Program-made: the position numbers and the translations under genes
Shown here: in pieces, positions 451-63,000 of the stretch
Position numbering within the stretch: the first letter of the stretch is position 1
How the letters are laid out: every line of letters begins with the position of its first letter
NCBI GenBank assembly: GCA_017470585.1
Contig: JAFUYI010000006.1
Coordinates: 1 to 63,173 of the forward strand
Direction of reading: 5' to 3'
Source: Alphaproteobacteria bacterium
Lineage (GTDB): Bacteria; Pseudomonadota; Alphaproteobacteria; RF32; CAG-239
Length of the DNA stretch: 63,173 nt
The notes under the pieces: generated by a model
The model's database searches: none
What the model was told of the DNA's origin: nothing
The model's input: the letters and a program-made list of their open reading frames with translations, nothing else

Positions 451-921
451 ATGAATAAATATATTTTAATGCTTGGCGTTGCCGGAGTTGCTCTTGGCAG
501 TTACGCAGCCTACGCGGGCAACTCGGCAACAATGACCGTAACAGCCACAATAGCTCATGATGTGAGCATAAATATTGAACAGGAAATGAGTTGCGGAACA
601 ATTACCATTGACCCATCGCAAAGTTTCGGTGCATGGGATTGCAATGATGATGATACTTCAAAAAACGGAGGTGTGATGTCCAAGAGCGGGACAAGAATTG
701 GCAAGATAAGTGCCAATGTTCCGGCAAGCGGATGGCATTGGACCATTACCAAAACCGATTTTCCTTCTCCGTTGGCATGGGCTGGAGGAACACCTGTAAT
801 ATCTGAGAATATTCAATCTGACGGTTTTTATCATGTATATGCATACATTGAATATAACACTGTTCCAGCAGAAGACGATTACAGTGCCACAATAACCGTA
901 AGTTATACTCCAGAAAGTTAG
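451..921 (+). CDS. Secreted DUF4402-like (pilin-like) protein, paralog P1
   Basis: 156 aa. Signal peptide MNKYILMLGVAGVALGSYAAYA, then GNSATMTVTATIAHDVS. C-terminus ..ATITVSYTPES. Belongs to the subtype without the CGGL motif. Confidence 0.9.
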   Translation: MNKYILMLGVAGVALGSYAAYAGNSATMTVTATIAHDVSINIEQEMSCGTITIDPSQSFGAWDCNDDDTSKNGGVMSKSGTRIGKISANVPASGWHWTITKTDFPSPLAWAGGTPVISENIQSDGFYHVYAYIEYNTVPAEDDYSATITVSYTPES

Positions 922-945
922 TATGAATCTGTGGTTCATCAAAAA

Positions 946-978
946 CTCGGGCGGAGGGGTAAATACTCTCCGCCCGAG
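946..978. terminator. Bidirectional hairpin terminator between P1 and bamE
   Basis: CTCGGGCGGAG (946-956) pairs with CTCCGCCCGAG (968-978). Flanked by A-rich and T-rich runs between two convergent genes. Confidence 0.75.
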
Positions 979-997
979 GGCTGTTTTGATTTTTATC

Positions 998-1462
998 TTA
1001 ATTATCCCTTATAGGATTTTTGTTTGAGTTGCCGAAAGGCAGATATTGTCCGACACCGCCGAAATATTTTTGGAAAAATCCTTCTTTTTGTTCCGGATTC
1101 GGGGTTTGTTCTTGAGCAATTTCAATCTCTCCGCCTTGTGTCTTATCAAGTCTTTCTATGGCACTGATTTTGCCTTCGGGATTAAATTTTACCACCAAAA
1201 CGTTGCGGTCAATCTCTTCGGGTGCCAAAAATGCCACCTGTTTTATTTCCGAGGACATATAAATCCATGTGTCTTTATCCAATGTAACCACGCTTGAGGG
1301 GGAGCCTAAAAGCTCTAAAACATCCTGTTTGCTCTGTCCCTTAAAGAGCATATTTATTTTTTCTTCCGAAGGCATATTGCCGGTGTGGCTTACAAAAATG
1401 TCGCTGCTGCAAGCCGCAAAAAACATTATGGAACTCAATAAAAACATTTTGCTTATTGACAT
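998..1462 (-). CDS. bamE: Outer membrane protein assembly factor BamE (SmpA/OmlA lipoprotein)
   Basis: Lipobox ..IMFFAAC, then the SmpA/OmlA-like core GQSKQDVLELLGSPS..DTWIY. The ATG at 1462 is preferred over the TTG at 1468. Confidence 0.85.
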   Translation of the reverse strand: MSISKMFLLSSIMFFAACSSDIFVSHTGNMPSEEKINMLFKGQSKQDVLELLGSPSSVVTLDKDTWIYMSSEIKQVAFLAPEEIDRNVLVVKFNPEGKISAIERLDKTQGGEIEIAQEQTPNPEQKEGFFQKYFGGVGQYLPFGNSNKNPIRDN

Positions 1463-1517
1463 TGACAAATATCCTTATATGTTAATCTCTCAAGATTATA
1501 GCACAAGGAAAAAATTT

Positions 1518-3293: not shown

Positions 3294-4260
3294 AGTATCC
3301 GTTTTAATGCCGGTTTATAAAACCAATCCGCAGCATTTGCGCGAGGCAATTGATAGCATTTTGTCGCAAACTTTCAAAGATTTTGAATTTTTGATTTTAG
3401 ATGACTGCCCGACAGACCACTCCGTGGAAGAAATCATTAAAACCTATTCCGACCCGCGCATAAAATATTTGCGCAATGATAAAAACATGGGCATATCGGG
3501 GGCCAGAAACAAGCTTATTGATTTGTCAAGCGGTGAATATTTGGCGGTGATGGACCATGATGATATATCGCTTGAAAATCGCTTTATCCGTGAGGTTGAA
3601 TATCTTGATAAGCACCGCGATGTCGGTGTGGTTTCCGTGCGGTTTACCCAATTCCCCGGCAACTACAAGGTAAATCCCATCCCCTATTCCGATCATCAGA
3701 TAAAATTAGCCTTAATGCGAACCTGTGCCATGATTCACCCCGGCGCGATGATTAGAAAATCGGTACTGATTGACAATAATATTCGTTATGAAGCGGAGTT
3801 CAGTCCCTCGGAAGATTACGCTATGTTCTGCCGTCTTATCCGCTATACCAATTTTTACAACTTTCCGGAGATTTTGTTCAAATATCGCAGACACCATACC
3901 AACACATCAAAATTGCAGGCCAAAGAAATGGTTGATTCCTCGCACCGCATCCATGCTTTTGTTAAGCGTGAGAATCCGGAGCTTTTTCAGGAATTTTTGA
4001 ATAAAGCGACACATACCAACCGTTTTTGCCTGTTTGACGGCATACCGCTGTTGACTTATGTTATGCACAAAGAGGACACAAAAGCGTTGCTGTTTGACTT
4101 TATTCCTCTTTTTTCCACCAAAACCAATGACCGGATAACCAAAGTTTCGATTTTGGGGTTGCCGTTGTTTGCCGTACACGCCAACGAATACAAAACCCGA
4201 GTTTTGCTGTTTAACTTAATTCCCGTCTTGTGTTACAAAAAACAAATTAAGTTGCGCTAA
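3286..4260 (+). CDS. Glycosyltransferase family 2
   Basis: N-terminus MPKVSVLMPVYKTNPQHLREAIDSILSQTFKDFEFLILDDCPTD..MDHDD. The start overlaps the upstream stop codon by 8 nt. Confidence 0.88.
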   Translation: MPKVSVLMPVYKTNPQHLREAIDSILSQTFKDFEFLILDDCPTDHSVEEIIKTYSDPRIKYLRNDKNMGISGARNKLIDLSSGEYLAVMDHDDISLENRFIREVEYLDKHRDVGVVSVRFTQFPGNYKVNPIPYSDHQIKLALMRTCAMIHPGAMIRKSVLIDNNIRYEAEFSPSEDYAMFCRLIRYTNFYNFPEILFKYRRHHTNTSKLQAKEMVDSSHRIHAFVKRENPELFQEFLNKATHTNRFCLFDGIPLLTYVMHKEDTKALLFDFIPLFSTKTNDRITKVSILGLPLFAVHANEYKTRVLLFNLIPVLCYKKQIKLR

Positions 4261-5150
4261 TTAAAGGAATATCCGCGCAGCAAATCTTGTGTTGCCATGG
4301 CTTTTTTGCCTTGGCGTTGGATTTCTTTTATTTCTATCGCGCCGTTTTTGCAGCCGACAAACAAACGAGATGCCCGTTGAATAATTTCGCCGGCAGGGAT
4401 TTTTTCATTGCCGGTAATTGCCCGCAGAATCTTAAAACGTTCTCCTTTATGTTCAAAGTAAACCGCCGGGTAGGGGTTAAACGCCATAATTTTATGCACC
4501 AGCTCTTCGGCACTCATTGAACAATCAAGCAGACTTTCTTCTTTTTCAATTTTGGCGGCATAACAACTCAATTCGTTGTCTTGCGCCTGCGGAGTGATTT
4601 TATCCCAATCACGCAGGGTTTTTAAGACCAAATCTGCTCCCATTAGAGCCAACTTGTCGTGTAAATCTCCTCCGGTTGTTTCCGCGGTTATTTTTATTTC
4701 GCCTTTAAGGAGCATATCTCCGGTATCAAGTCCGGCATCCATTTTCATAATCGTAATCCCGCTTTTGTCATCGCCCGCCTCAATCGCACGCTGTATGGGG
4801 GCAGCTCCCCGCCATCTCGGGAGTAAAGAAGCGTGAATGTTTATACAGCCCAAGGGATAGGCTTCCAGTACCTTTTGCGGCAAAATCAAACCATACGCCG
4901 CCACAACGGCAATGTCGGCTTTCAATTCGGCAAACTTGTGCTGTTCTTCTTCGCTGCGCAGGGTTTTGGGAGTTCTTACTTCAATCCCCCTTTCTTCAGC
5001 CCAGAGGTGAACCGGAGTTTTAAGTATTTTGTTGCCGCGTCCTGAGATTTTCGGTTCTTTGGTATATACCGCTAAAATCTCATGCTCGGAAGAAATTGCT
5101 TTCAAAGCCTCCAAAGCAAATTCCGGTGTTCCCATAAAAACGATTTTCAT
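4257..5150 (-). CDS. fmt: Methionyl-tRNA formyltransferase
   Basis: MKIVFMGTPEFA..INIHASLLPRWRGAAPIQRAI. ATGA overlap with def. Confidence 0.96.
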   Translation of the reverse strand: MKIVFMGTPEFALEALKAISSEHEILAVYTKEPKISGRGNKILKTPVHLWAEERGIEVRTPKTLRSEEEQHKFAELKADIAVVAAYGLILPQKVLEAYPLGCINIHASLLPRWRGAAPIQRAIEAGDDKSGITIMKMDAGLDTGDMLLKGEIKITAETTGGDLHDKLALMGADLVLKTLRDWDKITPQAQDNELSCYAAKIEKEESLLDCSMSAEELVHKIMAFNPYPAVYFEHKGERFKILRAITGNEKIPAGEIIQRASRLFVGCKNGAIEIKEIQRQGKKAMATQDLLRGYSFN

Positions 5151-5671
5151 TGATTTTCCTCCTCGCGGCGCAGTTTTTGCAGTTTTTTTATCAATATCTG
5201 TCTTTTTAGGCGGCTGATACGATCAATATACAAAATCCCGTCCAAATGGTCTATTTCGTGCTGTAAGGCAATGGATAAAAGACCATCTGCCGTCATCTCT
5301 CTTTCTTCCCCGTTATAGTCCTGATAATGCACTCTTACTTCCAAATAACGTGTTACCTCGGCTCTTTGCTCGGGAACCGACAAACAACCCTCAAATTGAG
5401 AACTTTCTTCTTGTGAATGCCATACAATCTCGGGGTTTACCAAATAAAGAGGACGGGGGGATTCTCCCTCGTCGGGATGAGCTGTGTCAATCACTATGAT
5501 GCGCTTTGATATTCCCACTTGCGGAGCAGCCAATCCGACGCCCTGCGCGGCATACATTGTTTCAAGCATATCATCCAAGAGTTTTTGCAAGCTGCCGTCA
5601 ACCTTTTCTACGCGGGAGGCGATTTGTTTTAAAATCGGGTGCGGATATTCAAAAATCGGTAATTTTGCCAT
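5147..5671 (-). CDS. def: Peptide deformylase
   Basis: Motifs GVGLAAPQVG, EGCLSVP and HEIDHLDG. Confidence 0.97.
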   Translation of the reverse strand: MAKLPIFEYPHPILKQIASRVEKVDGSLQKLLDDMLETMYAAQGVGLAAPQVGISKRIIVIDTAHPDEGESPRPLYLVNPEIVWHSQEESSQFEGCLSVPEQRAEVTRYLEVRVHYQDYNGEEREMTADGLLSIALQHEIDHLDGILYIDRISRLKRQILIKKLQKLRREEENQ

Positions 5672-5672
5672 T

Positions 5673-6158
5673 TTACGCCCTTATCTGCTTGGCAATCTGA
5701 TCCAAAAGGGCGTTGACCATTTTGGGTTCGTTTTTATTATAAAACGCGTATGCCATATCAACATATTCTTGAATTATAACTTTGACATCAACATCGTAAT
5801 TATTGGCGATTTCATACATGGCACACAGTAAAAGAGCCTGCAAAGTTCCATCGCAGTGGTCAAGCGATCTGCCGGAGGATAAAAACGAATTGAGCGATTT
5901 TTCCAAATCTTCTTTGGTCTTGTGAACACCTCTTACCAAATTTTCAAAGTAAGCTTTATCCATCGGCTCGACCATAACCATTTCTTCTTTGCCCAATTCC
6001 GTTTCATCAACGACATAGCGTCCGATTTCACCGTTTGCAAACTCGCGGATAACTTCTTCCACCGCCTCTCCCGAAAATGAAATTGTATAGGTTGCCTGCA
6101 CGGCGGCAAGCCTCGCGGAGCTTTTCATTTTTATTTTTTCGGAAACAAATTTTGCCAT
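5673..6158 (-). CDS. nusB: Transcription antitermination factor NusB
   Basis: ARLAAVQATY...ALLLCAMYE pattern. ATG at 6158 with AAGGA 9 nt upstream. Confidence 0.9.
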   Translation of the reverse strand: MAKFVSEKIKMKSSARLAAVQATYTISFSGEAVEEVIREFANGEIGRYVVDETELGKEEMVMVEPMDKAYFENLVRGVHKTKEDLEKSLNSFLSSGRSLDHCDGTLQALLLCAMYEIANNYDVDVKVIIQEYVDMAYAFYNKNEPKMVNALLDQIAKQIRA

Positions 6159-6169
6159 TTTCAAATCCT

Positions 6170-6640
6170 TCAGTGATTGCTGTTTTTTGCCAATTCATCA
6201 ATTTTATTTACAAATTCCTCAAAATCGCCGGCGGTGCGGAAATCTTTATAAACCGAGGCAAAGCGAATATACGCCACTTTATCGAGATTTGCAAGAGCAT
6301 CCATGGCATATTTACCGATAAGTGTTGAGGAAATTTCCGCCTCTCCCGAGCTTTCAAGCTGACGTTGAATGGAATTTACGATTTTTTCAACCCTTTCGGG
6401 GGTAATCGGACGCTTGCGCACTGCCAACTGAATCGAACGCGCCAGTTTGTCGCGGTCAAAACGCACTTTCTCGCCGTTTTTTTTAACCACGGTAAGCTCG
6501 CGCAGCATAACCCTTTCAAAAGTCGTAAACCTTGAACCACACTCCGGACATTCCCGACGGCGGCGGATAGAGGTATTATCCTCACTCAAACGCGAATCTT
6601 TAACTTGGCTTTCAATACATCCGCAAAACGGACACTTCAT
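6170..6640 (-). CDS. nrdR: Transcriptional repressor NrdR
   Basis: [24 protein letters not shown] zinc ribbon plus an ATP-cone domain. Confidence 0.96.
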
Positions 6641-6643
6641 TTT

Positions 6644-7960
6644 TTATCCTTTCAGCAAAACCTCGGTTACTTTGTAAAGTTGTGATGAATATCTTGCTCC
6701 CTTTATAAGGACAATATCGTTATTTTGCAACAATTTATTTTGCAAAAATTGCGCTAATCCCTCTTTATCGGCAAAATAATATTGAGTAATGCGGGGAGGA
6801 AGCATTTTTAACATATCTTTCATTTCTTCCTTAACCCCGATGACAATATCAATTTTGCTTTTCGCTAACAACTCTCCTATGGCAATATGTTCTGCCTTCG
6901 AGGTGTTGCCCAATTCCGCCATTTTGCCTAAAACGGCAATTTTGCGCCCCTGACAGGGCAAGGCATCCAAAGCCTTAACGGCAATTTTCATTGCTTCGGG
7001 TTGTCCCGAATAACTGTCATCAATAAGTGTGTAAGTTCCGCCGCCGTTTAAGGGCAGAAGGTGTTTTTTGCCTCTTCCGTCCAAGGCTCCGAAAGATTTC
7101 AGAGCCGAAGAAGCCTTTGTTTGGTCAAGTCCCAAAGCTTTAACGACTTCCAAAGCCGCCCATGCGTTATAACGCTGAATCTCTCCGTCTTGTTTGAGTT
7201 CCAAAACTCCGTTATAATGATGTTCGGAGCCGAATTTGACGACTTTGGCATTATGTTCCAAAGCTCTTTTCTCTAAAACTTCAGCAAAATTAGTATCCTC
7301 GTTGATTATGGCGGTACCGTTTGGGGGAAGCCCCTCAAAAATTTCTGCTTTGGCTTCGGCAATGCCTTCAAAATTTTCAAAAAATTCGATGTGCATTGGA
7401 TAAACATTGGTAATTAAAGCAATATCCGGTTTTACATGGCGCGTAAGAGCGGCTATTTCGCCTTTGGAACTCATTCCCATTTCAATAACGGCAAATTGTG
7501 CATCCATGGGCATTTCAAGCAAACTTTGCGGTACGCCGATGTGGTTGTTGTGATTGCCTTGCGTGGCGTATGTTTTGGCAAAAACGGACAAGGCGCATTT
7601 TATTTCCTCTTTGGTTGTGGTTTTGCCGGCACTTCCGGTCAAACCGATAACTTTTCCCTTGAAACGTGAACGGTTATAAGCCCCCAGTTTGCCGTAAGCC
7701 TCAACAGTGTTGTTTACCTTAATTTGGCAATTTTGGTTAACCCCGTCAACAAAACGTTCCACCACGGCCAACTCGCAACCGTTGTCAATGGCGGTTTTGA
7801 CAAAGTTATGACCGTCAAAATTTTCTCCCTTGATGGCGACAAACAAAGTCCCCGCGGCGGCTTTGCGGCTGTCGGTTACGATCTCGTTGATAACACAATT
7901 TTTTACTTTTGCGGCGGGATTTAGAATTTCCGTCAATTTTTGCGAAGTTATTTCTTCCAT
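6644..7960 (-). CDS. murF: UDP-N-acetylmuramoyl-tripeptide--D-alanyl-D-alanine ligase
   Basis: VIGLTGSAGKTTTKE P-loop and a Mur ligase C-terminal domain. It lies far from the mraY-ftsZ cluster. Confidence 0.93.
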   Translation of the reverse strand: MEEITSQKLTEILNPAAKVKNCVINEIVTDSRKAAAGTLFVAIKGENFDGHNFVKTAIDNGCELAVVERFVDGVNQNCQIKVNNTVEAYGKLGAYNRSRFKGKVIGLTGSAGKTTTKEEIKCALSVFAKTYATQGNHNNHIGVPQSLLEMPMDAQFAVIEMGMSSKGEIAALTRHVKPDIALITNVYPMHIEFFENFEGIAEAKAEIFEGLPPNGTAIINEDTNFAEVLEKRALEHNAKVVKFGSEHHYNGVLELKQDGEIQRYNAWAALEVVKALGLDQTKASSALKSFGALDGRGKKHLLPLNGGGTYTLIDDSYSGQPEAMKIAVKALDALPCQGRKIAVLGKMAELGNTSKAEHIAIGELLAKSKIDIVIGVKEEMKDMLKMLPPRITQYYFADKEGLAQFLQNKLLQNNDIVLIKGARYSSQLYKVTEVLLKG

Positions 7961-8082
7961 TTTCCGATTCCCGATAAAAACAATAATTATCTTATTAGTT
8001 CTTAAAAATGAAAATTTTATTACTTCGAAAAATAAATGTTATCAAGCTAGGAGTATGCGGTGTTTTTTATTTATTGAACGGA

Positions 8083-8622
8083 TCAATCAGGTTGGTGAAT
8101 TTTGTTTTTATATCGTAAAATTAAGTTACGTTGTTCTTGCTGAACTTCGCTTTCACCGACAAGAGCTACAATAAAGAGTATAAGCCAAATAAGCGGAATC
8201 CACCCCATAAACAGGTTGGCTGTGAATATTTTATCGGCATTTTTGTTATAGCGAGCTAGCCTTGCCGGAAACATATATATGTGCAAGGCAATCCACGCAA
8301 GTGTAATTCCGATAATCAAAAGAGAAATAAAAGACAGAATAATTGAGATAATCTCCTCTGTGGCGTAACTTGTATCTTGTGCAACTAAATATCTTTTAAT
8401 AACAAAACCGTCTTCGTTATAGCTTCTTACTTTTACCCATTCACCTTTATCTTCCAGCAATTCAACAAATTCGCCGGATTTTAATTTTTTCAGTATTTGA
8501 CAGTCCGTTCCCGCACAAGAGCGTAAGTTCAATACCTCCGTATTAACATAATAAGTTTTGGCATTGGCTGTATTACAAAAAAATAATGCCAAACAAAGTA
8601 AAATTAACTTCATATAGTGCAT
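8083..8622 (-). CDS. Membrane protein: SH3b-like domain fused to a superinfection-immunity-like (Imm) TM domain
   Basis: Signal peptide MKLILLCLALFFCNTANA. SH3b-like region YYVNTEVLNLRS..GEWVKV. C-terminal FPARLARYNKNADKIFTANLFMGWIPLIWL. The start is either 8622 or 8613. Confidence 0.6.
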   Translation of the reverse strand: MHYMKLILLCLALFFCNTANAKTYYVNTEVLNLRSCAGTDCQILKKLKSGEFVELLEDKGEWVKVRSYNEDGFVIKRYLVAQDTSYATEEIISIILSFISLLIIGITLAWIALHIYMFPARLARYNKNADKIFTANLFMGWIPLIWLILFIVALVGESEVQQEQRNLILRYKNKIHQPD

Positions 8623-9076: not shown

Positions 9077-9089
9077 CTTCTTAAACCTG

Positions 9090-14988: not shown

Positions 14989-15242
14989 TTTACATTGCCG
15001 TTTTTTTATGTTAACTTGAAAAGCGAAGTGAGTGAAAAACCGCTTTGAGGTGTGGAAACCTCTTCTGGGACGTTTAGAAAAACGCAAAACTTCTGGCTGA
15101 TTATGGCCGGAAGGTCGGGGAATATAAAGAATACCCGGCACTGTCTCCCAGAGCAGTTTCCAACTTCCGACCACCTCGCGGGTTTTAATGCCCAGAAGGT
15201 GGTTTTTCTTTATAACGTTAATAAAAGAAGGAAGTTTATAAA
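14989..15242 (+). promoter_or_regulatory. Promoter and structured 5' leader, copy L2 (controls P2)
   Basis: -35 TTTACA 14989-14994, 17 nt, -10 TAACTT 15012-15017. P1 arms TGGAAAC (15053-59) and TCTGGGA (15064-70) pair with TCCCAGA (15146-52) and GTTTCCA (15156-62). P4 is GTCGG/CCGGC. Confidence 0.75.
15170..15210 (+). terminator. Intrinsic terminator (attenuator) inside leader L2
   Basis: ACCACCT/AGGTGGT stem followed by TTTTTCTTT. Confidence 0.7.
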
Positions 15243-18130: not shown

Positions 18131-18402
18131 TTGATTGACAATAAAACCTATGATATAGTTACTTTGAAACAGGGAAATCCTGTTTTGGGGTGTGATGACC
18201 TCGCAATTGACGTTTATAAAGAAAAACGTAAAAATTCTTCCTGCTATAAAATGGCCGGAAGGTCGGGAAATAGGGGATAACCTAATACTCGGCACTGGTT
18301 CAATTGTCAGTCATCAACTTCCGACCACCTCTAGGGTTTATGCCTCAAAAGGTGGTTTTCTTTTAATGTTAACAAAAAAGAATTATAAAGGAAGTAAGAA
18401 AG
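18131..18402 (+). promoter_or_regulatory. Promoter and structured 5' leader, copy L3 (controls P3)
   Basis: -35 TTGATT 18131-36, 17 nt, -10 TATAGT 18154-59. P0 is AAACAGG/CCTGTTT. P1 arms TGATGAC..CAATTGA pair with TCAATTG..GTCATCA. P2 is ACGTTT/AAACGT. Confidence 0.75.
18324..18364 (+). terminator. Intrinsic terminator (attenuator) inside leader L3
   Basis: ACCACCT/AGGTGGT stem followed by TTTTCTTTT. The loop sequence is identical to that of L7. Confidence 0.7.
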
Positions 18403-21400: not shown

Positions 21401-21670
21401 ATTCTTTACTTCCTTTATAATTTTCTTTTTCTGTTAACACTAAAAAGAAAACCACCTTTGGGCGTAAAACCCTGAAGGCGGTTGGAAGCTCAAAACTACT
21501 AACTGATGTAGTGCAAGGTATTCTTTATATTCCCCTGCCTTCCAACCATAAAGATCGGATATATACCGATTTACGTTTCGGTACAAACGTCAGTTACGAG
21601 GTTTTGAGACCTCAAAGCGGTTTTTCACTCGCTTCAAAGTCAATATAACATAAGTTTTATTGATTGGCAA
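21401..21670 (-). promoter_or_regulatory. Promoter and structured 5' leader, copy L5 (controls P4)
   Basis: On the minus strand: -35 TTGCCA (21665-70), 17 nt, -10 TATATT (21642-47). The leader starts at about 21635 (GAAGCGAGTG). P1 arms CTCAAAAC..TAACTGA pair with TCAGTTA..GTTTTGAG. There is an extra hairpin ATCGG/CCGAT. Confidence 0.75.
21442..21482 (-). terminator. Intrinsic terminator (attenuator) inside leader L5
   Basis: RNA ACCGCCT/AGGTGGT (one G-U pair) followed by TTTTCTTTTT. Confidence 0.65.
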
Positions 21671-21778
21671 GCAAAAAGTTATAAAAAAATTATAAAAATT
21701 AGCTCGTTGCCAAAAATATATATTGACAAATTTTGTCCAAAATGGTACCTTAAAACAGGTTTAACCTTGAGGTGCATT

Positions 21779-22732
21779 ATGAAAAAAACTTTATTGGGAT
21801 TGGCATTGCTTGCCGGATTAAGCACAGATACAAAAGCCGAAGAAATATTAAATGCGGGTTTGACATCCGATTCGCCTAAAACCGAGCAACGATCCGACAG
21901 TACGGTTTCGGTGTGCGGCAGTTATCAGGGAGTTAATTTTGAGGTTGACCGCAAAACACATAAAGTTTCTTTTCCATCACTTGATGATAAAAAGAAATTC
22001 AGCACATTGGTTGAGGATTTTGCCGCTCGCCGTCAAATGCCCGTAAAGGTGGCAAAAGATATTGCCGAACGCTTGGCGGCCGTGCAGATTATCAAAAAAT
22101 ACGCCGACCCGAAACAGACGCAGTTTGCGGCTTCCGATGAGGAATTTGCCAAACAGCTCACCAAAGATGCGCAATATATTAAAACCCATGGCGCACAAGC
22201 TTTTTATGACAATATTATGAGTAAAAAAAGCACAACCGTAGATTTTGAACAGGCAAGGCAGAACCTTGTGCATAACAAGACCTACCGCGCCTCGCCGTCG
22301 GTTTCCTATCAGGTTTCTGGGAAGGGTGAAGTAGTTATTCTTGATGCCCGTCCCGACGGGAGGGTCATTCAGTCCTTAATGCCCCATTATGAAAGAGAAA
22401 ATTCGGATAAGGTGTCCAAATATGGTATTTATATCGCCTATAAGGACGATAAAGGAATGTATCATTGCGGCGGCAGCATTGCCAGAACTGCAAATGCGGC
22501 GCATTTGGCTGAAACAGCGGCATTAAATAACCTTTATGTAACCGATGTTATCGCCTCTCATATTGCTTCCCGTCAAGCTCAAGGTGAAGTTTTAACCTCG
22601 GGCGAGGAGGCGGTTTTAAGACTCAATGCCCAACTTTTAAAAAAGCACGGCATTATGCACGATAAAAACGGTTCTCTTATTCGTACTCCGCAAAACACTT
22701 CCAAATCACGGCATAAAACACAAAGTTATTAA
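21779..22732 (+). CDS. Secreted hypothetical protein
   Basis: Signal peptide MKKTLLGLALLAGLSTDTKA. RBS GAGGTG. I recognise no family. Confidence 0.7.
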   Translation: MKKTLLGLALLAGLSTDTKAEEILNAGLTSDSPKTEQRSDSTVSVCGSYQGVNFEVDRKTHKVSFPSLDDKKKFSTLVEDFAARRQMPVKVAKDIAERLAAVQIIKKYADPKQTQFAASDEEFAKQLTKDAQYIKTHGAQAFYDNIMSKKSTTVDFEQARQNLVHNKTYRASPSVSYQVSGKGEVVILDARPDGRVIQSLMPHYERENSDKVSKYGIYIAYKDDKGMYHCGGSIARTANAAHLAETAALNNLYVTDVIASHIASRQAQGEVLTSGEEAVLRLNAQLLKKHGIMHDKNGSLIRTPQNTSKSRHKTQSY

Positions 22733-26834: not shown

Positions 26835-27100
26835 TTGATTTAAGCAAAAAACTGTTTTAGTATGAATCTTGAAGTGAAGAATTTTCACTTTGAGGTGTGA
26901 CAGCCCCTATCAAAGCGTTTTTAAGAAAAACGTAAAAATTCTTCCTGCTATAATGGTTGGAAGGCAAAGGAATAAGAGATACCTCAAATACTTTGCACTG
27001 TTCTTTGATACAGCTGTCAACTTCCAGCCACCTCGCGGAGTACATCTCCAACGGGTGGTTTCTTTTTATAACCGCAAAGAAACCATAAAAGGAAGTTTAG
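26835..27100 (+). promoter_or_regulatory. Promoter and structured 5' leader, copy L4 (controls divergent paralog P5)
   Basis: -35 TTGATT 26835-40, 17 nt, -10 TAGTAT 26858-63. P0 is AAGTGAA/TTCACTT. P1 arms TGACAGC..TATCAAAG pair with CTTTGATA..GCTGTCA. P4 is GCAAA/TTTGC with a distal GAG/CTC hairpin. Confidence 0.75.
27028..27067 (+). terminator. Intrinsic terminator (attenuator) inside leader L4
   Basis: CCACC/GGTGG stem with an inner GGAG/CTCC pairing, followed by TTTCTTTTT. Confidence 0.65.
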
Positions 27101-27655: not shown

Positions 27656-27722
27656 ATTTTCATAAAAAGGGTTTATTTTTTGGATAGCTTTGATTATATC
27701 TGCAGGCAAAAAGGAGAAAATT

Positions 27723-28996: not shown

Positions 28997-29247
28997 CTAA
29001 ACTTCCTTATCTATTGTTAACAAAGAAAATCACCCCGACAAATAGACGAGGTGATTGGAAGTTTCAGACTGTCATGTATAACAGTGTATGGTATTTGGTT
29101 GAAACCTTATTTCCATACCTTCCAACCATAATACGGTCAGAAGTAGTTTTATGTCTTTGCGGACAATACATGAGAGGTCTGAAAACCTCAAAGTGACCTT
29201 TCATTCACTTCATTTTCTACCCTAGCATAAAAAATCTTTTATGTAAA
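28997..29247 (-). promoter_or_regulatory. Promoter and structured 5' leader, copy L6 (controls P6)
   Basis: On the minus strand: -35 TTTACA (29242-47), 17 nt, -10 TAGGGT (29219-24). The leader starts at about 29211. P1 arms TTTCAGAC..TCATGTAT pair with ATACATGA..GTCTGAAA. P4 is GTATGG/CCATAC with a distal GGTT/AACC hairpin. The palindrome GCAAAATTTTGC lies at 29248-29259. Confidence 0.75.
29022..29055 (-). terminator. Intrinsic terminator (attenuator) inside leader L6
   Basis: RNA ATCACC/GGTGAT stem followed by TTTTCTTTG. Confidence 0.6.
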
Positions 29248-38111: not shown

Positions 38112-38381
38112 ATTAAAACTTCCTTTCTTTAGTTTATTATAACTTTAATAAAAGAAACCACCTCTTGGAGTATTTCTCCGCGAGGTGGTCGGAAGTTCAC
38201 AACTATCAGTTATAATAGTCCTGCGTATTTGTGAAATCACTTATTTCGCAAGCTTCCGACCATAAGCCGGATACAAACCAAATAACGTTTTGGTAAACGA
38301 TAGCTGAGAGGTTGTGACACCTCAAAGCAGAATTTTCCCTGCTTCGATTTTTAAGCTAGCATAAAAAATCTTTTATGTCAA
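38112..38381 (-). promoter_or_regulatory. Promoter and structured 5' leader, copy L8 (controls P8)
   Basis: On the minus strand: -35 TTGACA (38376-81), 17 nt, -10 TAGCTT (38353-58). P0 is AAGCAG/CTGCTT. P1 arms TCACAAC..TCAGCTA pair with TAACTGA..GTTGTGA (one mismatch). P4 is CTTGCG/CGCAGG with a distal GTGA/TCAC hairpin. Confidence 0.72.
38151..38189 (-). terminator. Intrinsic terminator (attenuator) inside leader L8
   Basis: RNA ACCACCT/AGGTGGT stem with an inner GGAG/CTCC pairing, followed by TTTCTTTT. Confidence 0.7.
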
Positions 38382-42901: not shown

Positions 42902-43160
42902 TACAAAAACTTCCTTTTTTTATTAAAGTTATAATAAAGAAACCACCTTTTGGCTCTTGAAAGCCGCGAGGTGGCTGGAAGCTGACAACTGTTGTAAGGA
43001 ACAGTGTCGGGTATTCTTTATATTCCCCGACCTTCCAACCATAGAACGGTTAGAAGCAATTTTCTGTCTTGTTCGGACACCTTACAAGAGGCTGTCAGAC
43101 CTCAAAACGAAATTTTCTCCGTTTCGGAATTAAACTAGCACATTTTTAAACTTAAATCAA
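42902..43160 (-). promoter_or_regulatory. Promoter and structured 5' leader, copy L9 (controls P9)
   Basis: On the minus strand: -35 TTGATT (43155-60), 17 nt, -10 TAGTTT (43132-37). P0 is AAACG/CGTTT. P1 arms CTGACAGC..TTGTAAGG pair with CCTTACAA..GTTGTCAG (one G-U). P4 is GTCGG/CCGAC. Confidence 0.75.
42934..42975 (-). terminator. Intrinsic terminator (attenuator) inside leader L9
   Basis: RNA CCACCT/AGGTGG stem with an inner GGCT/AGCC pairing, followed by TTTCTTTATT. Confidence 0.65.
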
Positions 43161-57283: not shown

Positions 57284-58219
57284 ATGAAGATTAAGAACTT
57301 ATTGCCTTTGCTTGGAATATTAGGCGTTTTCGCATATCCTTGCCGCGCCGCCGTAACAACCGATTCGGTGACGGTGGATTTTGGTAAAATATATCAGCTT
57401 TTAAGTACGGCCTCAATTACTTTGGGGTATTCCGGAGAGCCTGCGCTTGCCGGAGCCGCTAAATCCTCAAGCTATACATACGCAGCCGGAACGGCGATTT
57501 TTAAGACGGACAACACAGACCCTGGCGTTGTTGAAACAATTGTTCCGAATGCGGAAACAGCAAGCGGCGTTATCAGCGGAACCAACTGCACCATAGAGGT
57601 TTCCAATGTTACTTTCAATCCGGCGGGTGTAGAGCTTACTGCGGCGGCGCAAACCCAAAACGTCACCGTCGGTGCCAAATTGAGCTTTTCCGGATTCTGC
57701 CGTGAAGGGACTTATAACGGAACTTTGAGCTTGCCTTATTCCATAACCCGAGGCGATTCTACTGCGGATGCTTCAACGCCGGTTAATATTCCCTTGACCA
57801 TCCAGATTGAGGAGCCGTTGAGCATTACCAAAGACAGCGAAATAAAATTCGGTAATGTTACCATTAACCCGATAAAGGCCGGAACGGTTGTTCTGTCTCC
57901 CGAAGGAACCGTTACCGCCAGTGACGGTATCAGTGTCGCCGGGGGAACGTATGCGGCGGGATCTGCTGTTATTAAGGGAGTCGGAGGCAGAACGGTTAAT
58001 ATCTCTCTTTCTGGTGATTCTGCGACTTTGAACGGAGTAAACGGCGGAACCATTATCGTGAACAATTTTAAAACCAGTCCTTCCGGTAGCTCGTTTACAT
58101 TGAGCGGGAGCGGGGCTGATGCCGAGCAAGAATTTAAAATCGGCGGTACCATGAATGTAGGAGTCGCTCAAAAGAAAGGCACCTACACCGGTAGTATAAC
58201 AGTTACTGTGGCTTATTAG
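57284..58219 (+). CDS. Secreted protein with two tandem DUF4402-like domains (candidate tip or major subunit)
   Basis: Signal peptide ..FAYPCRA|AVTT. Domain 2 is EIKFGNVTINP...GGTMNVGVAQKKGTYTGSITVTVAY. It shares the G(N/T)(V/I)TINP motif with the ten paralogs. Confidence 0.85.
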   Translation: MKIKNLLPLLGILGVFAYPCRAAVTTDSVTVDFGKIYQLLSTASITLGYSGEPALAGAAKSSSYTYAAGTAIFKTDNTDPGVVETIVPNAETASGVISGTNCTIEVSNVTFNPAGVELTAAAQTQNVTVGAKLSFSGFCREGTYNGTLSLPYSITRGDSTADASTPVNIPLTIQIEEPLSITKDSEIKFGNVTINPIKAGTVVLSPEGTVTASDGISVAGGTYAAGSAVIKGVGGRTVNISLSGDSATLNGVNGGTIIVNNFKTSPSGSSFTLSGSGADAEQEFKIGGTMNVGVAQKKGTYTGSITVTVAY

Positions 58220-58241
58220 TTTATAAGGAGAAAAAATTAAA

Positions 58242-59072
58242 ATGATAAAAAGACTTTTAATTACGTTGTTGTTGGTTAGTGCTTTTGCGACTCGTACGAG
58301 TGCCAATATCGGCGTTTTCCCGCAATCGGTAGATTTTGATGACAGTTCCAAAAAACGTTCTCAAACATTAAATGTTGTAAATCACTCGGATCACCCGCAG
58401 ACATACCGTGTCAGCGTTATCCAATATACTCAAGATGAAGACGGCAAATATACGGAAGTTGAAACAGCTCCGAATGCTGCCGCCAAATATCTGGTTTTTT
58501 CTCCGAAGCAATTCACGATTCGCCCCGGTAAAATTCAGGCTGTTCGCATTGCTCGTAAATCTCTCGGACAATTAAAAGACGGCGAATATGTATCGCACAT
58601 TAAAATCAGTGAAGTTGAAATGCCCAAAGTAAAGACTGCGGAAGATGAAAAGAAAGCCGCCGAGGCTAAAAAAGCCGCTGAAGAGGGCAATAATGAGGAA
58701 GCTGAAGATGAGGAAGAAACCGAAAGACAGCTTTCATTCTCTTTGAAGACGCTGTTTGCCATGAGTATTCCGGTTACTATCTATAAAGGTAATAATTTGG
58801 AACAAAAGACCTCTATTGAGAGTGTCAAGGTGAACGGCGATAAGGTTGATGTTGTATTAAAACGTCAAGGACAGATTTCATCGCGTGTAAACGTTGTTGT
58901 TTTGGACACTAAAGGCAATGAAATCGGCCGCAACGGTCCGTTGCGTATTTATACACCGAACGGAAAACGTAATGTATCCGTTCAACTGGACAAAGAAGCA
59001 AAAACTAAACCGGCTATTATAAGACTTGAAAATGCAGTTACAAAGAAAGAAATCCTGCAGAAACAAATCTAA
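58242..59072 (+). CDS. PapD-like periplasmic pilus chaperone
   Basis: Signal peptide, then IGVFPQSVDFDDSSKKRSQTLNVVNHSDHPQTYRVSV..FSPKQFTIRPGKIQAVRI.. A charged insert lies before the candidate G1 strand LSFSLKTLFAMSIPVTIY. Confidence 0.7.
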   Translation: MIKRLLITLLLVSAFATRTSANIGVFPQSVDFDDSSKKRSQTLNVVNHSDHPQTYRVSVIQYTQDEDGKYTEVETAPNAAAKYLVFSPKQFTIRPGKIQAVRIARKSLGQLKDGEYVSHIKISEVEMPKVKTAEDEKKAAEAKKAAEEGNNEEAEDEEETERQLSFSLKTLFAMSIPVTIYKGNNLEQKTSIESVKVNGDKVDVVLKRQGQISSRVNVVVLDTKGNEIGRNGPLRIYTPNGKRNVSVQLDKEAKTKPAIIRLENAVTKKEILQKQI

Positions 59073-62000
59073 ACTTCTGTTTAGACTGTTATTGCTGCTC
59101 TCTGCTCTGCCGTTGGTTGCACACGCGGAAGATGATACTGCCGTGCAGCCGCAGCAGGCGGAACCCGAGGCTGCGCCTCAAGAGATTGACAACTATGTTC
59201 CCGAAGATGAGGAGTTGATTTTTGAAACTTCGACTCAAGGTTACATGGAGGAAGATTATCTCTATGCGTACAACCAAAAAGGAAAGGTCTTTTTGCCTTT
59301 TTCACAGGTGTCGGCTTTTCTGGGTATTATGTATGATCAACAAAATAAGGTGCTTACCGCTTGGTACAGCAATGAACCTGCGCATAAGTACATCATTGAT
59401 CTCAATACCTACACCGCCAGTGATGACGGTAAGCCGGTCGCTTTTTCGGCATCGGACTATAAGTTCATTGAAGGAACAATGTTCTTCGATGTTAATTTTA
59501 TTTCGACATTGTTCGGATTTGAGACCAAGTACGACTTCTATGATATGAAGATTTCCTTTGACCGTGAACGCGAATTTCCGACCATGGTTAAACGTAATGC
59601 CGATGCTCGCCGTCAGAAGAGCCGAGGCGTTCAGTTCGCCGACCGCAGTTATAAGGACTACGAAAAAGATGAACGTTGGATCGGTTCTCCGGTGATTGAC
59701 TTGCAAGTCGGTAAAAACTGGTCGCATAACAAAGGCGGAAAAACCACCAATAGTGATAACTATGCGGTTAACATTTCAACCATTGCCGCCGGTGTCGATG
59801 TCAACAGCTATATTTCCGGATCTTCATCCGACGGACATAAACCTCGTTTCCGTTTTAACGGCGGACGTACGTTGCTTGATGACGGTGACACACCGCTGAA
59901 TTTGCGTCAATATAAGTTCGGTGATATTACCGGTATCGGCAGTTCTTACTTTACGGATGCCAGCTACGGACGCGGTGCCAGCTTCTCGAGCTTTAAAAAC
60001 TTGGTTTTGAGTGCGGATAAGACAATTGACATTGTCGGTCCCTTGGCGGAAGGATGGGAAGTTGAGCTGTATTGGAACGGGCAGTTGTTAGGTTATCGTC
60101 AAAACAGCATTAACGGCGAATATAACTTTGCTAAAATCCCTGTTTCCTACGGGTTGAACACATTTAAACTTGTTTTCTACGGTCCGTACGGTGAAGTCCG
60201 CACCGAAGAAAAACGTTACTACTCCGGTACTTCTCCGGTTCACAAGGGCGAGTTCGGCTATAATGTTGCCGCTTATCAGCCTTGGCGTTATTTGGTTGAA
60301 GAAAATGAGCCCAATACCTATGACGGCAAAGATATTCCTGTTTTAGACAGTACATTCTATTACGGTGCCACCGATGACTTGACGGTTATGGGCGGATATA
60401 CGCAAACTCCGGATGCCGAAACCAAAGAAGATACCCAGCATTTCGGTATGGCAGGTTTCCAATACGCCATCAAAGGTAGTTCGGTTCAATATAACTTGGA
60501 AACTAACCTTGATACCGAAAAGAGCGGACACCATGTTGAGTGGCAGGGTGATGTTTACATCGGAACGGTTTACGCTTCGTATGATAAATACAATTCTGTT
60601 CATTCGCCTGTATCATATTCCGGTAACGAGTACTTAAAAGACAAGACCGAGTTCCGTTTCAGCGGAAGCACTCCGTGGGCTTTGCCTTATTATGTAAGTT
60701 ACCGCACCGGAAAGAAAGAAAGCGGTGATGAAACTTACAAAGACATCGTTGCTCGTGTTTCCAAGAGCTTGGAGGGATGGTATCTCTCCTTGGAGGACAC
60801 TTATGATGCTCTGAATTACCGCAATGTTATCAGTCCGCGTGTTTATAATCACTGGGGCAACTTCTCTTGGGAAAACTCTCTTGAATATCGTTCCAACCCG
60901 GATCCGGATTTCACGGATTTTACTTCCAAGCTGACATGGCGTGAAGACCGCTATACTTATTATACAGCGCAATATCGCCGTGATTTGGAAGAAGATATGG
61001 ATTATTATTCGCTTTCCGGAGCGAGAATCTTCCCGTTCGGCGGTCTGTCTTTGACATTGCAGATGGATAAAAAGAAAAACTTCTCCAGTTATTTAACTTA
61101 TAATATCAGCTTTGCCAAAGAGCCTGGTCATGCCAATGTTATCACTTCGGCTAACTCCAAGTTGAGCGGCACGGGTTCAATCTATGTAACCTTGCACGAT
61201 GATGAGGGCAATCCTTTAGAGGGTGTCGGTTTGACAGCCAGCAACTTGGTTAAGGAAGTTTACACCGATGAAAACGGTGCGGCGTTCTTGACCGACTTGA
61301 GTGCTAATGAAAAGACCATTTTGACGGTTGATATGGAAACTTTGGAGGATGTATCCTTAAAGCCTGATGCCGAAGTTAAGAAATTGGTTTTGCGCCCCGG
61401 CACACTGCGTGAGATTGATATTTCATTCAGTCACTATGCGTCGGTTGAAGGACAAATTGCTAACCCGCACGGCAAACGCCTGTATGGTTACAAAGTTGCC
61501 GCTGTTGATGCGGAAGGCAACGAAGTTACTTCTAACTTCTCGGATTTGGAAGGTTACTTCATTGTCAGTGATGTTCCTTACGGTACTTATGACTTTATTG
61601 TTTCGAAGGACGGTAAGACCTTGGCGGAAATCAAGGATGTTAAGGTTGATGACATTGAAATTGCGCTTGATGATGTTTACACCAAAGAGGCAATGCGTCC
61701 CGGCAGCGGTATAGAAGCAGGAGCTTTGTTCGAGTCGGATGAAAGCGAGAACTACCTCACTACGACCAACCCGGATGAGGAAGAGGAAAATTCTGCGGCA
61801 GATGAAGATAATGCCAAAGAAGATAAGAGTACCTCTAACGACAGCTTCTATGATTATTGGCTCGGACACAATCAATGGAATATGGCGGAAAATAGAGACA
61901 CCGCTCCCGTAATCGGACAGACCCCGTATGTTGGACAATGCCTGCGCGAACCGAAAATGGTATCACAGCAAATCGGCATTACTCCGATCAACTTTGCCGA

Positions 62001-62376
62001 GGTTTACCAAAACAACGGCAAATGGCTCAAGTCTGCATCACGCAGTGCACCGGCAAAATGGATCGACGCACAGCGTTTGACACCGGCACGTTGGATAAAT
62101 GCTTATCGCTATACTCCGGCTCTGTGGATACACGCCGATCGCGAAACATCGGCTCGTTGGATAAATGCTTACCGTTATACTCCGGCGAGATGGATCAACG
62201 CTTTCCGTTACGCTCCGGCAGCATGGATTCATGCTTATCGCTATGCACCGGCAACATGGATTCAGGCGTACCGCTACGCACCTGCGGCATGGATACACGC
62301 CTACCGCTTTGCGCCGGCTCGTTGGATAAATGCGGATGCCGAGACCAAATCGGTTAAACGTCCGACCAAGGCATAA
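59032..62376 (+). CDS. Large outer-membrane usher-like protein with CarboxypepD_reg-like domains and a C-terminal 11-aa repeat array
   Basis: 1114 aa from the ATG at 59032. Signal peptide LLFRLLLLLSALPLVAHA. The Tyr/Gly-rich central part looks like a beta-barrel. Two segments resemble carboxypeptidase-regulatory-like domains (GSIYVTLHDDEGNPLEGV.., GQIANPHGKRLYGYKV..). The position after the chaperone gene supports an usher role. Confidence 0.6.
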   Translation: MQLQRKKSCRNKSKLLFRLLLLLSALPLVAHAEDDTAVQPQQAEPEAAPQEIDNYVPEDEELIFETSTQGYMEEDYLYAYNQKGKVFLPFSQVSAFLGIMYDQQNKVLTAWYSNEPAHKYIIDLNTYTASDDGKPVAFSASDYKFIEGTMFFDVNFISTLFGFETKYDFYDMKISFDREREFPTMVKRNADARRQKSRGVQFADRSYKDYEKDERWIGSPVIDLQVGKNWSHNKGGKTTNSDNYAVNISTIAAGVDVNSYISGSSSDGHKPRFRFNGGRTLLDDGDTPLNLRQYKFGDITGIGSSYFTDASYGRGASFSSFKNLVLSADKTIDIVGPLAEGWEVELYWNGQLLGYRQNSINGEYNFAKIPVSYGLNTFKLVFYGPYGEVRTEEKRYYSGTSPVHKGEFGYNVAAYQPWRYLVEENEPNTYDGKDIPVLDSTFYYGATDDLTVMGGYTQTPDAETKEDTQHFGMAGFQYAIKGSSVQYNLETNLDTEKSGHHVEWQGDVYIGTVYASYDKYNSVHSPVSYSGNEYLKDKTEFRFSGSTPWALPYYVSYRTGKKESGDETYKDIVARVSKSLEGWYLSLEDTYDALNYRNVISPRVYNHWGNFSWENSLEYRSNPDPDFTDFTSKLTWREDRYTYYTAQYRRDLEEDMDYYSLSGARIFPFGGLSLTLQMDKKKNFSSYLTYNISFAKEPGHANVITSANSKLSGTGSIYVTLHDDEGNPLEGVGLTASNLVKEVYTDENGAAFLTDLSANEKTILTVDMETLEDVSLKPDAEVKKLVLRPGTLREIDISFSHYASVEGQIANPHGKRLYGYKVAAVDAEGNEVTSNFSDLEGYFIVSDVPYGTYDFIVSKDGKTLAEIKDVKVDDIEIALDDVYTKEAMRPGSGIEAGALFESDESENYLTTTNPDEEEENSAADEDNAKEDKSTSNDSFYDYWLGHNQWNMAENRDTAPVIGQTPYVGQCLREPKMVSQQIGITPINFAEVYQNNGKWLKSASRSAPAKWIDAQRLTPARWINAYRYTPALWIHADRETSARWINAYRYTPARWINAFRYAPAAWIHAYRYAPATWIQAYRYAPAAWIHAYRFAPARWINADAETKSVKRPTKA
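62053..62349 (+). repeat. Nine in-frame 33-bp tandem repeats (consensus A-x-W-I-x-A-Y-R-Y-x-P)
   Basis: AKWIDAQRLTP ARWINAYRYTP ALWIHADRETS ARWINAYRYTP ARWINAFRYAP AAWIHAYRYAP ATWIQAYRYAP AAWIHAYRFAP ARWINADAETK. Confidence 0.95.
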
Positions 62377-62395
62377 GTTCTTGTGTTAATATCAG

Positions 62396-62423
62396 ACCCC
62401 TCGGAAAAATCCGAGGGGTTTTG
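62396..62423. terminator. Intrinsic terminator between the usher-like gene and P10
   Basis: ACCCCTCGG-AAAAAT-CCGAGGGGT followed by TTTG. Confidence 0.85.
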
Positions 62424-62454
62424 ATTATATAGAATTTATCACAGCTGATGTTTT

Positions 62455-63000
62455 TTAGCTTTCCGGAGTGTAAGAGATGGTCAAAGTTCCCGAATGCGAA
62501 CCGGGGGTAACTTTGGAAATTTTTCCCTCTAATATAGTGCAATCATAGCAACGTACCTCAAAGCCGTTTTCTGATCCACTGTATTTTAAAGCAAAGTTAC
62601 ATATACTAGTATTATCACTTCCTCCGAAAATATTAAGAATACCATTAGAACCATCATTTCCTTCAACCTTTAATCCTCCGCAATAATCAATTGGCGCATC
62701 GCAAGCTGACGGATTGGGGATATTAGCAGTAAAAGTGCCGATAGTTGCATTATCTGCTGTGACAAGGGCATCTCCATAGTCAACACTGGGTACACCAGAA
62801 TCGTTGTAACTCCATTCTGTTTCTTCGGTTGCTGACGGGTTAATGGTAATAGTTCCAAGGCTTATATCGCCGGTTTTGGTCAAACTCACATCATGAGCAA
62901 TCGTTGCCGTCACGGTCATTGTGGCGGAATTGCCTGCGTATGCGCAATAACTGCCTATGGAAACCGCGGCAATGCCGAGCATTAAAATATAATTTTTCAT
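62455..63000 (-). CDS. Secreted DUF4402-like protein, paralog P10
   Basis: 181 aa. Same N-terminal strand, GTITINP, CDAPIDYCGGL, ..GTLTISYTPES. Confidence 0.92.
   Translation of the reverse strand: MKNYILMLGIAAVSIGSYCAYAGNSATMTVTATIAHDVSLTKTGDISLGTITINPSATEETEWSYNDSGVPSVDYGDALVTADNATIGTFTANIPNPSACDAPIDYCGGLKVEGNDGSNGILNIFGGSDNTSICNFALKYSGSENGFEVRCYDCTILEGKISKVTPGSHSGTLTISYTPES

Follow-up and report, generated by a model that had tools for sequence, protein, structure and literature searches.

Chaperone-usher systems are usually encoded in operons with one major and a few minor subunits, variety arising through several complete operons. The Csu and CupE operons contain few subunits, all of them inside the operon, and in the Caf1 system a single subunit type is polymerized by one chaperone and one usher. 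In a 63,173-nt stretch of alphaproteobacterial DNA (contig JAFUYI010000006.1; "the window" denotes this stretch at its full length) we analyzed ten dispersed genes for small, putatively secreted proteins, P1 to P10, which share a conserved N-terminus and are each preceded by a structured leader. A chaperone-usher operon, on which the initial annotation of this DNA had not remarked, was found at 57284-62376, adjoining P10. The best explanation of the data, to which we assign a probability of about 0.8, is that the ten open reading frames (ORFs) encode alternative major pilins of one DUF4402-type chaperone-usher fiber, with its assembly genes at 57284-62376. That these are chaperone-usher-type subunits forming a large interchangeable repertoire had been proposed initially; the operon, homology to DUF4402, a counterpart locus in a relative and a structural model of P2 all back the proposal.

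Like the archaic (sigma) chaperone-usher pili Csu of Acinetobacter baumannii and CupE of Pseudomonas aeruginosa (PMC9452303, PMC10104325), the present system, as known from genes and models, combines a secreted subunit of ~150 amino acids (aa) bearing a putative N-terminal donor strand with a chaperone and an usher of its own and a two-domain protein as candidate tip subunit. Unlike them, the window paralogs miss the cut-off of the SCPU model in Pfam, and their match to the Csu fold is weak (probability 0.15). Caf1/Caf1M/Caf1A of Yersinia pestis provides the closest structural match to the P2 model (3dsn, 1z9s and 1p5u; template modeling score (TM) 0.38-0.50), but there is no sequence similarity, and a single caf1 gene there contrasts with tens of paralogs and a tip-like two-domain protein here. 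Neisseria pilE/pilS and Anaplasma msp2/p44 operate with one expression site and promoterless silent cassettes. They resemble the present family in their many copies, conserved ends, hypervariable middles and short-tract exchange; they differ in that every window copy is a complete transcription unit and that no signals of invertible or cassette recombination were found in the window. A literature search produced no mention of DUF4402, and nothing comparable was found in the literature on orphan or multiplied chaperone-usher major subunits. As far as we know, the system is set apart from described chaperone-usher systems by the number and dispersal of complete major-subunit genes per single machine seen, by a putative donor strand that is invariant across all copies, and by a private structured leader for each gene. 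If confirmed, this would to our knowledge be the largest pilin repertoire for one chaperone-usher machine.

Putative subunit genes and assembly operon

Translation confirmed all ten ORFs, which read as they had been described initially. They encode proteins of 156-184 aa and lie four on the forward (+) and six on the reverse (-) strand:

P1: 451-921, + strand; pilin-like paralog of 156 aa, body class with two Cys, supported by ORF, translation and family alignment.
P2: 15243-15782, + strand; pilin-like paralog of 179 aa, four-Cys class, mature part modeled.
P3: 18403-18924, + strand; pilin-like paralog of 173 aa, four Cys.
P4: 20876-21400, - strand; pilin-like paralog of 174 aa, four Cys.
P5: 27101-27655, + strand; second-subfamily paralog of 184 aa, with N-terminus VSENFAISTTIDHEIVL and a 12-aa insert.
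P6: 28460-28996, - strand; pilin-like paralog of 178 aa, four Cys.
P7: 32674-33195, - strand; pilin-like paralog of 173 aa, four Cys, with a terminator-like site downstream at 32649-32623.
P8: 37638-38111, - strand; pilin-like paralog of 157 aa, different body.
P9: 42428-42901, - strand; pilin-like paralog of 157 aa, different body.
P10: 62455-63000, - strand; pilin-like paralog of 181 aa, convergent with the usher gene.

The operon next to P10 comprises three genes:

57284-58219, + strand: two-domain DUF4402 protein of 311 aa (PF14352, expectation value (E) 4.7e-30, 105 bits, two stretches); candidate tip subunit or adhesin.
58242-59072, + strand: PapD-like periplasmic chaperone of 276 aa (PF00345, PapD_N, 24.0 bits with a cut-off of 23, E=4.2e-5).
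59026-62376, + strand: outer-membrane usher of 1116 aa; it contains a CarboxypepD_reg domain and, at the C-terminus, tandem repeats of 11 aa.

By its predicted structure the 1116-aa protein is unmistakably an usher. An AlphaFold (AF2) model of the part encoded by 59125-61905, built from a 61-sequence alignment, had a predicted local distance difference test score (pLDDT) of 82.8, and Foldseek aligned it with FimD (3rfz_B, E=2e-30) and PapC (7lhh_C, E=7e-25) over about 890 columns. The Usher model of Pfam (PF00577) is on record for three homologs and does not match the window protein, in which Pfam sees CarboxypepD_reg only; comparison of the usher with the PDB by sequence gave nothing relevant. 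The 3′ end of the gene (62083-62318) consists of about seven copies of a 33-nt tandem unit, which encode the 11-aa repeat PAxWIxAYRYx. Some usher homologs have precomputed OmpA (PF00691) or SPOR (PF05036) matches, and because of these the repeats may be a replacement cell-wall anchor.

The chaperone was also recognized by NCBIfam, where the fimbrial chaperone TcfA matched with E=2.4e-6 and another fimbrial chaperone with E=2.9e-4 over residues 3-227. Its orthologs lie between the subunit and usher genes in L023 and L024 (L-numbers designate loci fetched from relatives). In the two-domain DUF4402 protein the first FG motif is located 13 residues past the predicted cleavage site, compared with about 27 in the paralogs, and the distance from the predicted site to the first core strand is about nine residues, versus about 17-24 in the paralogs and single-domain DUF4402 proteins. 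Because almost no N-terminal extension is present, this protein is likely to be the tip subunit, which would receive a strand and donate none. Sec signal peptides were predicted by eye on subunits, chaperone and usher (sites of the AYA/G, TSA/N and AHA/E type), and no canonical lipobox was seen in the translated subunits.

The gene order of the two-domain DUF4402 region is kept in three relatives. L023 contains genes for a 315-aa DUF4402 protein, a 256-aa PapD_N-like protein and a 1074-aa usher, followed by a convergent gene for a 147-aa protein; the latter occupies the position of P10 and is a Pfam DUF4402 protein (26.2 bits, cut-off 25.2). In L024 the two-domain gene and the chaperone gene are separated by two 167-aa genes, of which one is Pfam DUF4402, and in L018 a 310-aa two-domain DUF4402 gene is immediately preceded by P0179, a distant family member. 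The DUF4402 operons of other Alphaproteobacteria thus resemble the present one in having a ~310-aa two-domain DUF4402 protein, a ~255-aa PapD-like chaperone, a ~1000-aa usher with CarboxypepD_reg, and single-domain subunits of 147-176 aa with an N-terminal extension and a C-terminal G.Y.G.hThT..Y. They differ in that one to three small subunit genes lie in or near the operon and carry no structured leader, whereas in the window lineage ten such genes lie within 63 kb, and 79 or more in a related metagenome-assembled genome (MAG), dispersed among housekeeping genes, too diverged for the Pfam model and each with a structured leader. Since the relatives' operons hold one to three subunits, the ancestral state would be an ordinary chaperone-usher operon of this kind, and the rumen lineage would have multiplied and scattered the small-subunit gene.

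The extent of this multiplication can be judged from database searches. The family search gave 283 matches, and at least 79 distinct clusters at 90% identity carry locus tags of one related MAG (IJ689_00080 to IJ689_07975). If the locus tags step by five, that MAG has ~1600 genes, of which the family makes up roughly 5%. A profile search of 1.84 billion representatives yielded only 74 clusters (50% identity) at E<=1e-3, so that, judged by its sequences, the family is lineage-restricted yet hugely amplified inside its lineage. The relatives are ruminant gut assemblies labeled 'Alphaproteobacteria bacterium'. A scan of genome contigs found three loci only, all of one roe-deer rumen MAG, and a scan of JGI metagenomes found none. 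The P5-type N-terminus VSENFAISTTIDHEIVL is common to about 20 representative clusters in the library.

Conservation, fold and relationships of the paralogs

Nine of the ten paralogs have in common the signal peptide M(N/K)(K/N)Y(I/F)L..G.A.V..GSY(C/A)AYA and the mature N-terminus (G/T)NSATM(T/S)VTATIAHDVS(L/I), the corresponding sequence of P5 being related but distinct. This is the pattern reported initially, apart from one correction, namely that P9 begins with T and not with G. The block GTF(T/S)AN..NP..C......C(G/A)GL and a later Cys pair are present in P2-P7 and P10, and P1, P8 and P9 have other bodies, as the initial annotation had stated from the translations. Its assignment of four Cys to all seven members of the first group holds for P2-P7 but not for P10, the mature part of which contains five. 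Among P1-P4 and P6-P10 the N-terminal strand shows 96% amino-acid identity, the signal peptide 79% and the body 38%. Across 121 family members the first 18 mature residues have a column entropy of 0.31 bits, compared with 2.2-2.7 bits in the variable segments; these lie between the conserved ones, which are the donor strand, GTITINP, GTFTANIPNP and the C-terminal TLTISY.

Where the same nine paralogs have identical residues, their fourfold sites have diverged by 0.52 (signal peptide), 0.50 (strand) and 0.56 (body). In the 42 nucleotides that encode ATMTVTATIAHDVS (14 codons) every pair shows 3-9 differences, with T to S in P8 as the sole replacement; the seven synonymous differences reported earlier between P1 and P2 were obtained exactly on recounting. 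With divergence equal in all regions, comparison of the codons indicates that the strand is maintained by selection at the protein level, and gene conversion is ruled out as the cause of its conservation. The initial conclusion to this effect stands with regard to the cause, with the amendment that short conversion tracts do occur. Exact shared tracts of 30-58 nt were found between otherwise strongly diverged copies, in different segments for different pairs, including P6/P7. For P3 and P7 there are two such tracts, one of 58 nt covering codons of signal peptide and strand and one of 46 nt within the leader terminator; P3 and P4 share 56 nt at the 3′ end, and P5 and P10 have tracts of 42 nt and 32 nt in the leader. 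Exact tracts of this length cannot be old, which suggests mosaic short-tract gene conversion or recombination among copies on top of deep divergence.

The same tracts could be explained if most copies were decaying or silent duplicates homogenized by gene conversion, with one or a few of them functional as in silent-cassette systems. This we consider extremely unlikely. All ten ORFs are intact, each with a promoter-like site, leader, Shine-Dalgarno site, start codon and terminator, and no invertible-promoter repeats were found in the window. Furthermore, synonymous divergence of about 0.5 in every region together with a 96% identical strand requires purifying selection on each copy.

The AF2 model of mature P2, obtained from a 121-sequence alignment, is a beta-sandwich with pLDDT 91.6 and a predicted TM of 0.82. 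Its pLDDT exceeds 90 except in the first 17 residues, exactly the invariant stretch, which lack secondary structure and score 52-74. In this monomer model the N-terminal, donor-strand-like extension proposed initially lies unstructured outside the confident sandwich. The Foldseek matches of the model are weak. Most of the top matches are chaperone-usher pilins, namely Caf1, CsuA/B, HdaB, FimA, CfaB (CFA/I), PapE and SafA. The best are the Caf1 subunits 3dsn_E, 1z9s_B and 1p5u_B (probability 0.80-0.85), and CsuA/B (7zl4) is a weak match (probability 0.15).

The prominence of Caf1 could be taken to mean that the paralogs form an amorphous, capsule-like coat of thin flexible polymers, comparable to the Yersinia Caf1/F1 antigen, in which variation changes or masks the surface; that no separate adaptor or terminator subunits were identified in the window would be in keeping with this. 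Yet all the structural matches are weak, and the two-domain, tip-like DUF4402 protein in the operon suggests a tipped fiber. We therefore regard a coat as unlikely and prefer pilins of a chaperone-usher fiber.

The family affiliation of these putative pilins emerged from profile comparison. The weakest tail of the family profile search reaches genuine DUF4402 proteins. When mature sequences (signal peptides removed) were compared by hhalign, the family matched six DUF4402 subunits, five of them Pfam-positive, with 87.7% probability (E=3.4e-6, columns 1-70). A broader set including operon-linked relatives was matched over the full length (98.6%, E=7.8e-16, columns 1-153), this set being partly circular in that some of its members were first found with the family profile. 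A homolog search with the two-domain DUF4402 protein returned a single match, hence the comparison set was drawn from operon neighbors. By homology the paralogs belong, as remote relatives, to the uncharacterized DUF4402 branch. The initial annotation had likened their layout to DUF4402 or to Csu/SCPU: hhalign and operon linkage support the former, and likeness to the latter is not established. It had also suggested a search for relationships to pilin-like families, and such a relationship was found as the profile-profile match to DUF4402, no paralog reaching the Pfam cut-offs. The best SCPU match was that of P9, sub-threshold at 19.5 bits (E=1.3e-3) and confined to the C-terminal 43 residues. 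NCBIfam gave no significant family for the ten paralogs, and the family profile found nothing relevant in the PDB by sequence. A type II secretion pseudopilin match (GspH, E=0.05, P3) was rejected, being below cut-off and with no prepilin-peptidase-type cleavage motif seen.

The proteins might also be secreted or periplasmic monomers, such as binding proteins or decoys, with the N-terminus serving as an export, sorting or chaperone-recognition tag. The signal peptide itself is unusually conserved, no Pfam pilin family scores above cut-off and polymerization is inferred, all of which would suit monomers. Conservation, however, runs about 17 residues past the cleavage site with an alternating T/V/A/I pattern, and AF2 places this stretch outside the fold. 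These observations, together with the homology to DUF4402 subunits of chaperone-usher operons and the operon in the window, make monomers very unlikely.

For the preferred explanation, that of alternative pilins of one fiber, we infer the following steps from the established chaperone-usher pathway. Subunits would be exported by Sec and lose their signal peptide, most likely after ..AYA (predicted by eye). In the periplasm the PapD-like chaperone (58242-59072) would complete the open beta-sandwich by donor-strand complementation and hand the subunit to the usher (59026-62376), where the N-terminal extension of the incoming subunit, NSATMTVTATIAHDVS, would displace the chaperone strand in the previous subunit by donor-strand exchange. 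The two-domain DUF4402 protein (57284-58219) would act as the tip subunit. The segments GTITINP, GTFTANIPNP and TLTISY are taken to line the acceptor groove, and the variable segments are probably surface loops. As donor strand and groove segments are fixed across paralogs, any paralog should fit the same machine and the same neighbors; this would provide many interchangeable fiber surfaces, with ten genes here and at least 79 in the related MAG. The attenuator in the leader would decide whether a given pilin is made. The two strand types, main and P5-type, may correspond to two fiber types or to a special role of the P5 class.

Several points weigh against this explanation. Pfam found no DUF4402 (PF14352) match in the ten paralogs even at E<=10 (cut-off 25.2 bits), all ten score below the SCPU (PF05229) cut-off of 22.4 bits, and all Foldseek matches of P2 in the PDB are weak (best E=0.036, TM 0.38-0.50). 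The chaperone assignment is marginal by Pfam score, and no solved chaperone was found in the PDB by sequence with either the protein or a three-sequence profile. 'One machine' refers to the only chaperone and usher seen in the window and the fetched loci. Expression, surface exposure and polymerization of the subunits are proposed, as is an open groove filled in trans. Finally, in the leaders described below, a candidate antiterminator pairing GAGGUG:CACCUC is conserved with no covariation signal.

Leader RNA

Each paralog forms a unit that consists of a promoter-like site (sigma-70-like, extended -10), leader, terminator, Shine-Dalgarno site, ATG, ORF and terminator. Promoter-leader-ORF-terminator cassettes had been recognized initially; this organization was seen for all copies, and the leader proved to be a strongly covarying structured RNA. 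A consensus scan scored three promoters, and conserved upstream promoter-like sequence is present in every copy. The conserved leader segment begins about 6 nt past the -10 hexamer, where a putative transcription start is located. A covariance model of ~190 nt built from nine leaders (R1) gave the following matches:

P1 leader: 220-409, + strand; 199.8 bits; 5′ hairpin, long-range helices closing a four-way junction, and intrinsic terminator.
P2 leader: 15024-15211, + strand; 189.3 bits.
P3 leader: 18165-18364, + strand; 176.2 bits; promoter-like TTGATT-17-TATAGT at 18131-18159.
P4 leader: 21443-21636, - strand; 169.6 bits; promoter-like site at 21670-21642.
P5 leader: 26870-27067, + strand; 174.6 bits.
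P6 leader: 29021-29212, - strand; 171.0 bits.
P7 leader: 33220-33410, - strand; 197.2 bits; promoter-like site at 33444-33416.
P8 leader: 38149-38346, - strand; 171.7 bits.
P9 leader: 42934-43126, - strand; 197.7 bits.
P10 leader: 63032-63173, - strand; 102.6 bits, model positions 55-192, the 5′ end being cut by the end of the window.

In the window R1 matched all ten paralog leaders and nothing else. In the fetched loci every confident match lay directly upstream of a family-size gene; in L004, L015 and L019, which were checked gene by gene, a leader was present directly upstream of 10 out of 12 complete family-size genes. At L019 7621-8175 there is a family-size gene (184 aa) with no R1 match. 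No R1 leader was detected for P0168 (L015 10001-10468), a divergent member that lies 245 nt downstream of a gene for 1611 aa and in which the strand motif is retained as TMSVSATIAHD. Nor was a leader found upstream of the subunit genes of the non-expanded relatives, which suggests that the leader arose or was recruited with the expansion.

An alignment of 28 distinct leaders has 97% of its cells paired, with compensatory changes at 33 of the 60 pairs. When partner columns were slid by 1-3 positions, 38-49% were paired, and none of 500 shuffles scored as high. The alignment was fitted to the model; the same helices were obtained in independent minimum-free-energy folds of single sequences. The fold comprises a 5′ hairpin, two long-range helices whose sequence differs in nearly every copy, and a four-way junction with three hairpins, one of which has a variable-length insert between conserved AAUA and AAUAC. 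A predicted terminator follows about 25-45 nt before the Shine-Dalgarno site: a G+C-rich hairpin of 8 bp plus 4 bp (helices 7 and 8, 97-100% paired) and then UUUYUUU. An alternative stem pairs GGUYGGAAG with the downstream CUUCCRRCC (columns 96-104 with 162-170); its pairing reaches 98%, two of its pairs are compensatory, and it shares four nucleotides with the terminator arm. Its stability falls short of that of the minimum-free-energy fold by about 12 kcal/mol.

The leader is best read as a transcription attenuator that would gate each pilin gene, as its predicted structure suggests; it may possibly be an mRNA-stabilizing 5′-untranslated region only, or a separate small RNA. Other candidates were rejected. 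An extended antiterminator (columns 16-20 with 176-180) was no better than shuffles. A leader peptide was dismissed, as the ORFs from a conserved AUG are 4-38 codons long, diverge after the first residues and have no Shine-Dalgarno site, and so was an invertible promoter switch, as no consistent inverted repeats flank the promoters. It is conceivable, though rather improbable, that the leader represents a new class of RNA switch for pilin choice, in which all copies would be transcribed and terminate by default, and a signal or trans-acting factor at the four-way junction would free one copy or a subset. If true, this would permit selection among about 100 interchangeable subunits and surface variation without DNA rearrangement.

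At gathering thresholds no Rfam family was found in the window. Three window leaders gave sub-threshold, end-to-end matches to sRNA-Xcc1 (RF02221) at 32.9, 31.1 and 28.1 bits, the gathering score being 53; the match sites include 303-378 (+), 15105-15180 (+) and 33250-33325 (-). These three leaders and sRNA-Xcc1 have in common an outer stem of nine pairs, GG.CGG..G/C..CCG.CC, with ACC behind it and then two hairpins, the first of which carries AAUA..AA loops. sRNA-Xcc1 is likewise located upstream of small ORFs (bioRxiv 10.1101/2025.06.18.660453; PMC7313666). None of the 11 leaders of L004, L015 and L019 matched it even at E<=10. Membership was rejected because the scores are below 53, these 11 leaders are unmatched, and the long-range fold, a competitor of the matched stem, is better supported. 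The idea that sRNA-Xcc1 is an IS1111 seekRNA had no support in the literature consulted on it and was dropped.

P1 and P6 have an exact 30-nt promoter segment in common (288-317 and about 29241-29270), in which the palindrome GCAAAATTTTGC overlaps the -35 region. From its sequence this palindrome could be a regulator binding site for a subset of paralogs.

Genomic setting and significance

The paralog ORFs occupy 8.2% of the window; with leaders and terminators the share is estimated at ~13%, the figure given initially for the cassettes. Housekeeping neighbors include RNase E, GyrA, a CcrM-type N6/N4 DNA methylase, HtpG, SufB, S1, HslUV and FtsZ. The initial description of the rest of the window as core genes has to be revised, since it also holds the matching chaperone-usher operon. 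Two ORFs have no family match. One, at 27690-28403 (+, 237 aa), lies between P5 and P6 and has membrane-spanning-like hydrophobic segments near both ends; the other, at 21707-22732 (+, 341 aa), adjoins a paralog and has a signal-peptide-like stretch after an internal Met.

Among the relatives, L009 and L010 contain the same paralog, P0091, with different upstream content in the two assemblies. In one it is preceded by alanine racemase, TatD and a metallo-beta-lactamase-fold gene, in the other by a fragment of an IS1 transposase. Genes for restriction-modification and DUF3768 are found in the vicinity. The difference could reflect a rearrangement breakpoint or an assembly difference at the paralog. 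L006 encodes [FeFe]-hydrogenase-like proteins (Fe_hyd_lg_C) of a related organism at 3863-8508, and L004 and L006 contain lipopolysaccharide (LPS) and outer-membrane genes (LpxK, a Glycos_transf_N protein and AsmA). By gene content, the hydrogenase and LPS genes fit an anaerobic, diderm rumen alphaproteobacterium with a small genome.

If the explanation proposed here is true, the family would constitute a natural experiment that tells the parts of a pilin constrained by donor-strand exchange from those able to vary, and it would give a function to the uncharacterized DUF4402 family. The covarying leader, with no Rfam family above threshold, is a tractable candidate for a new regulatory RNA. 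The repertoire points to how an uncultured rumen alphaproteobacterium may cope with phages, protozoa, host immunity or diverse substrates.

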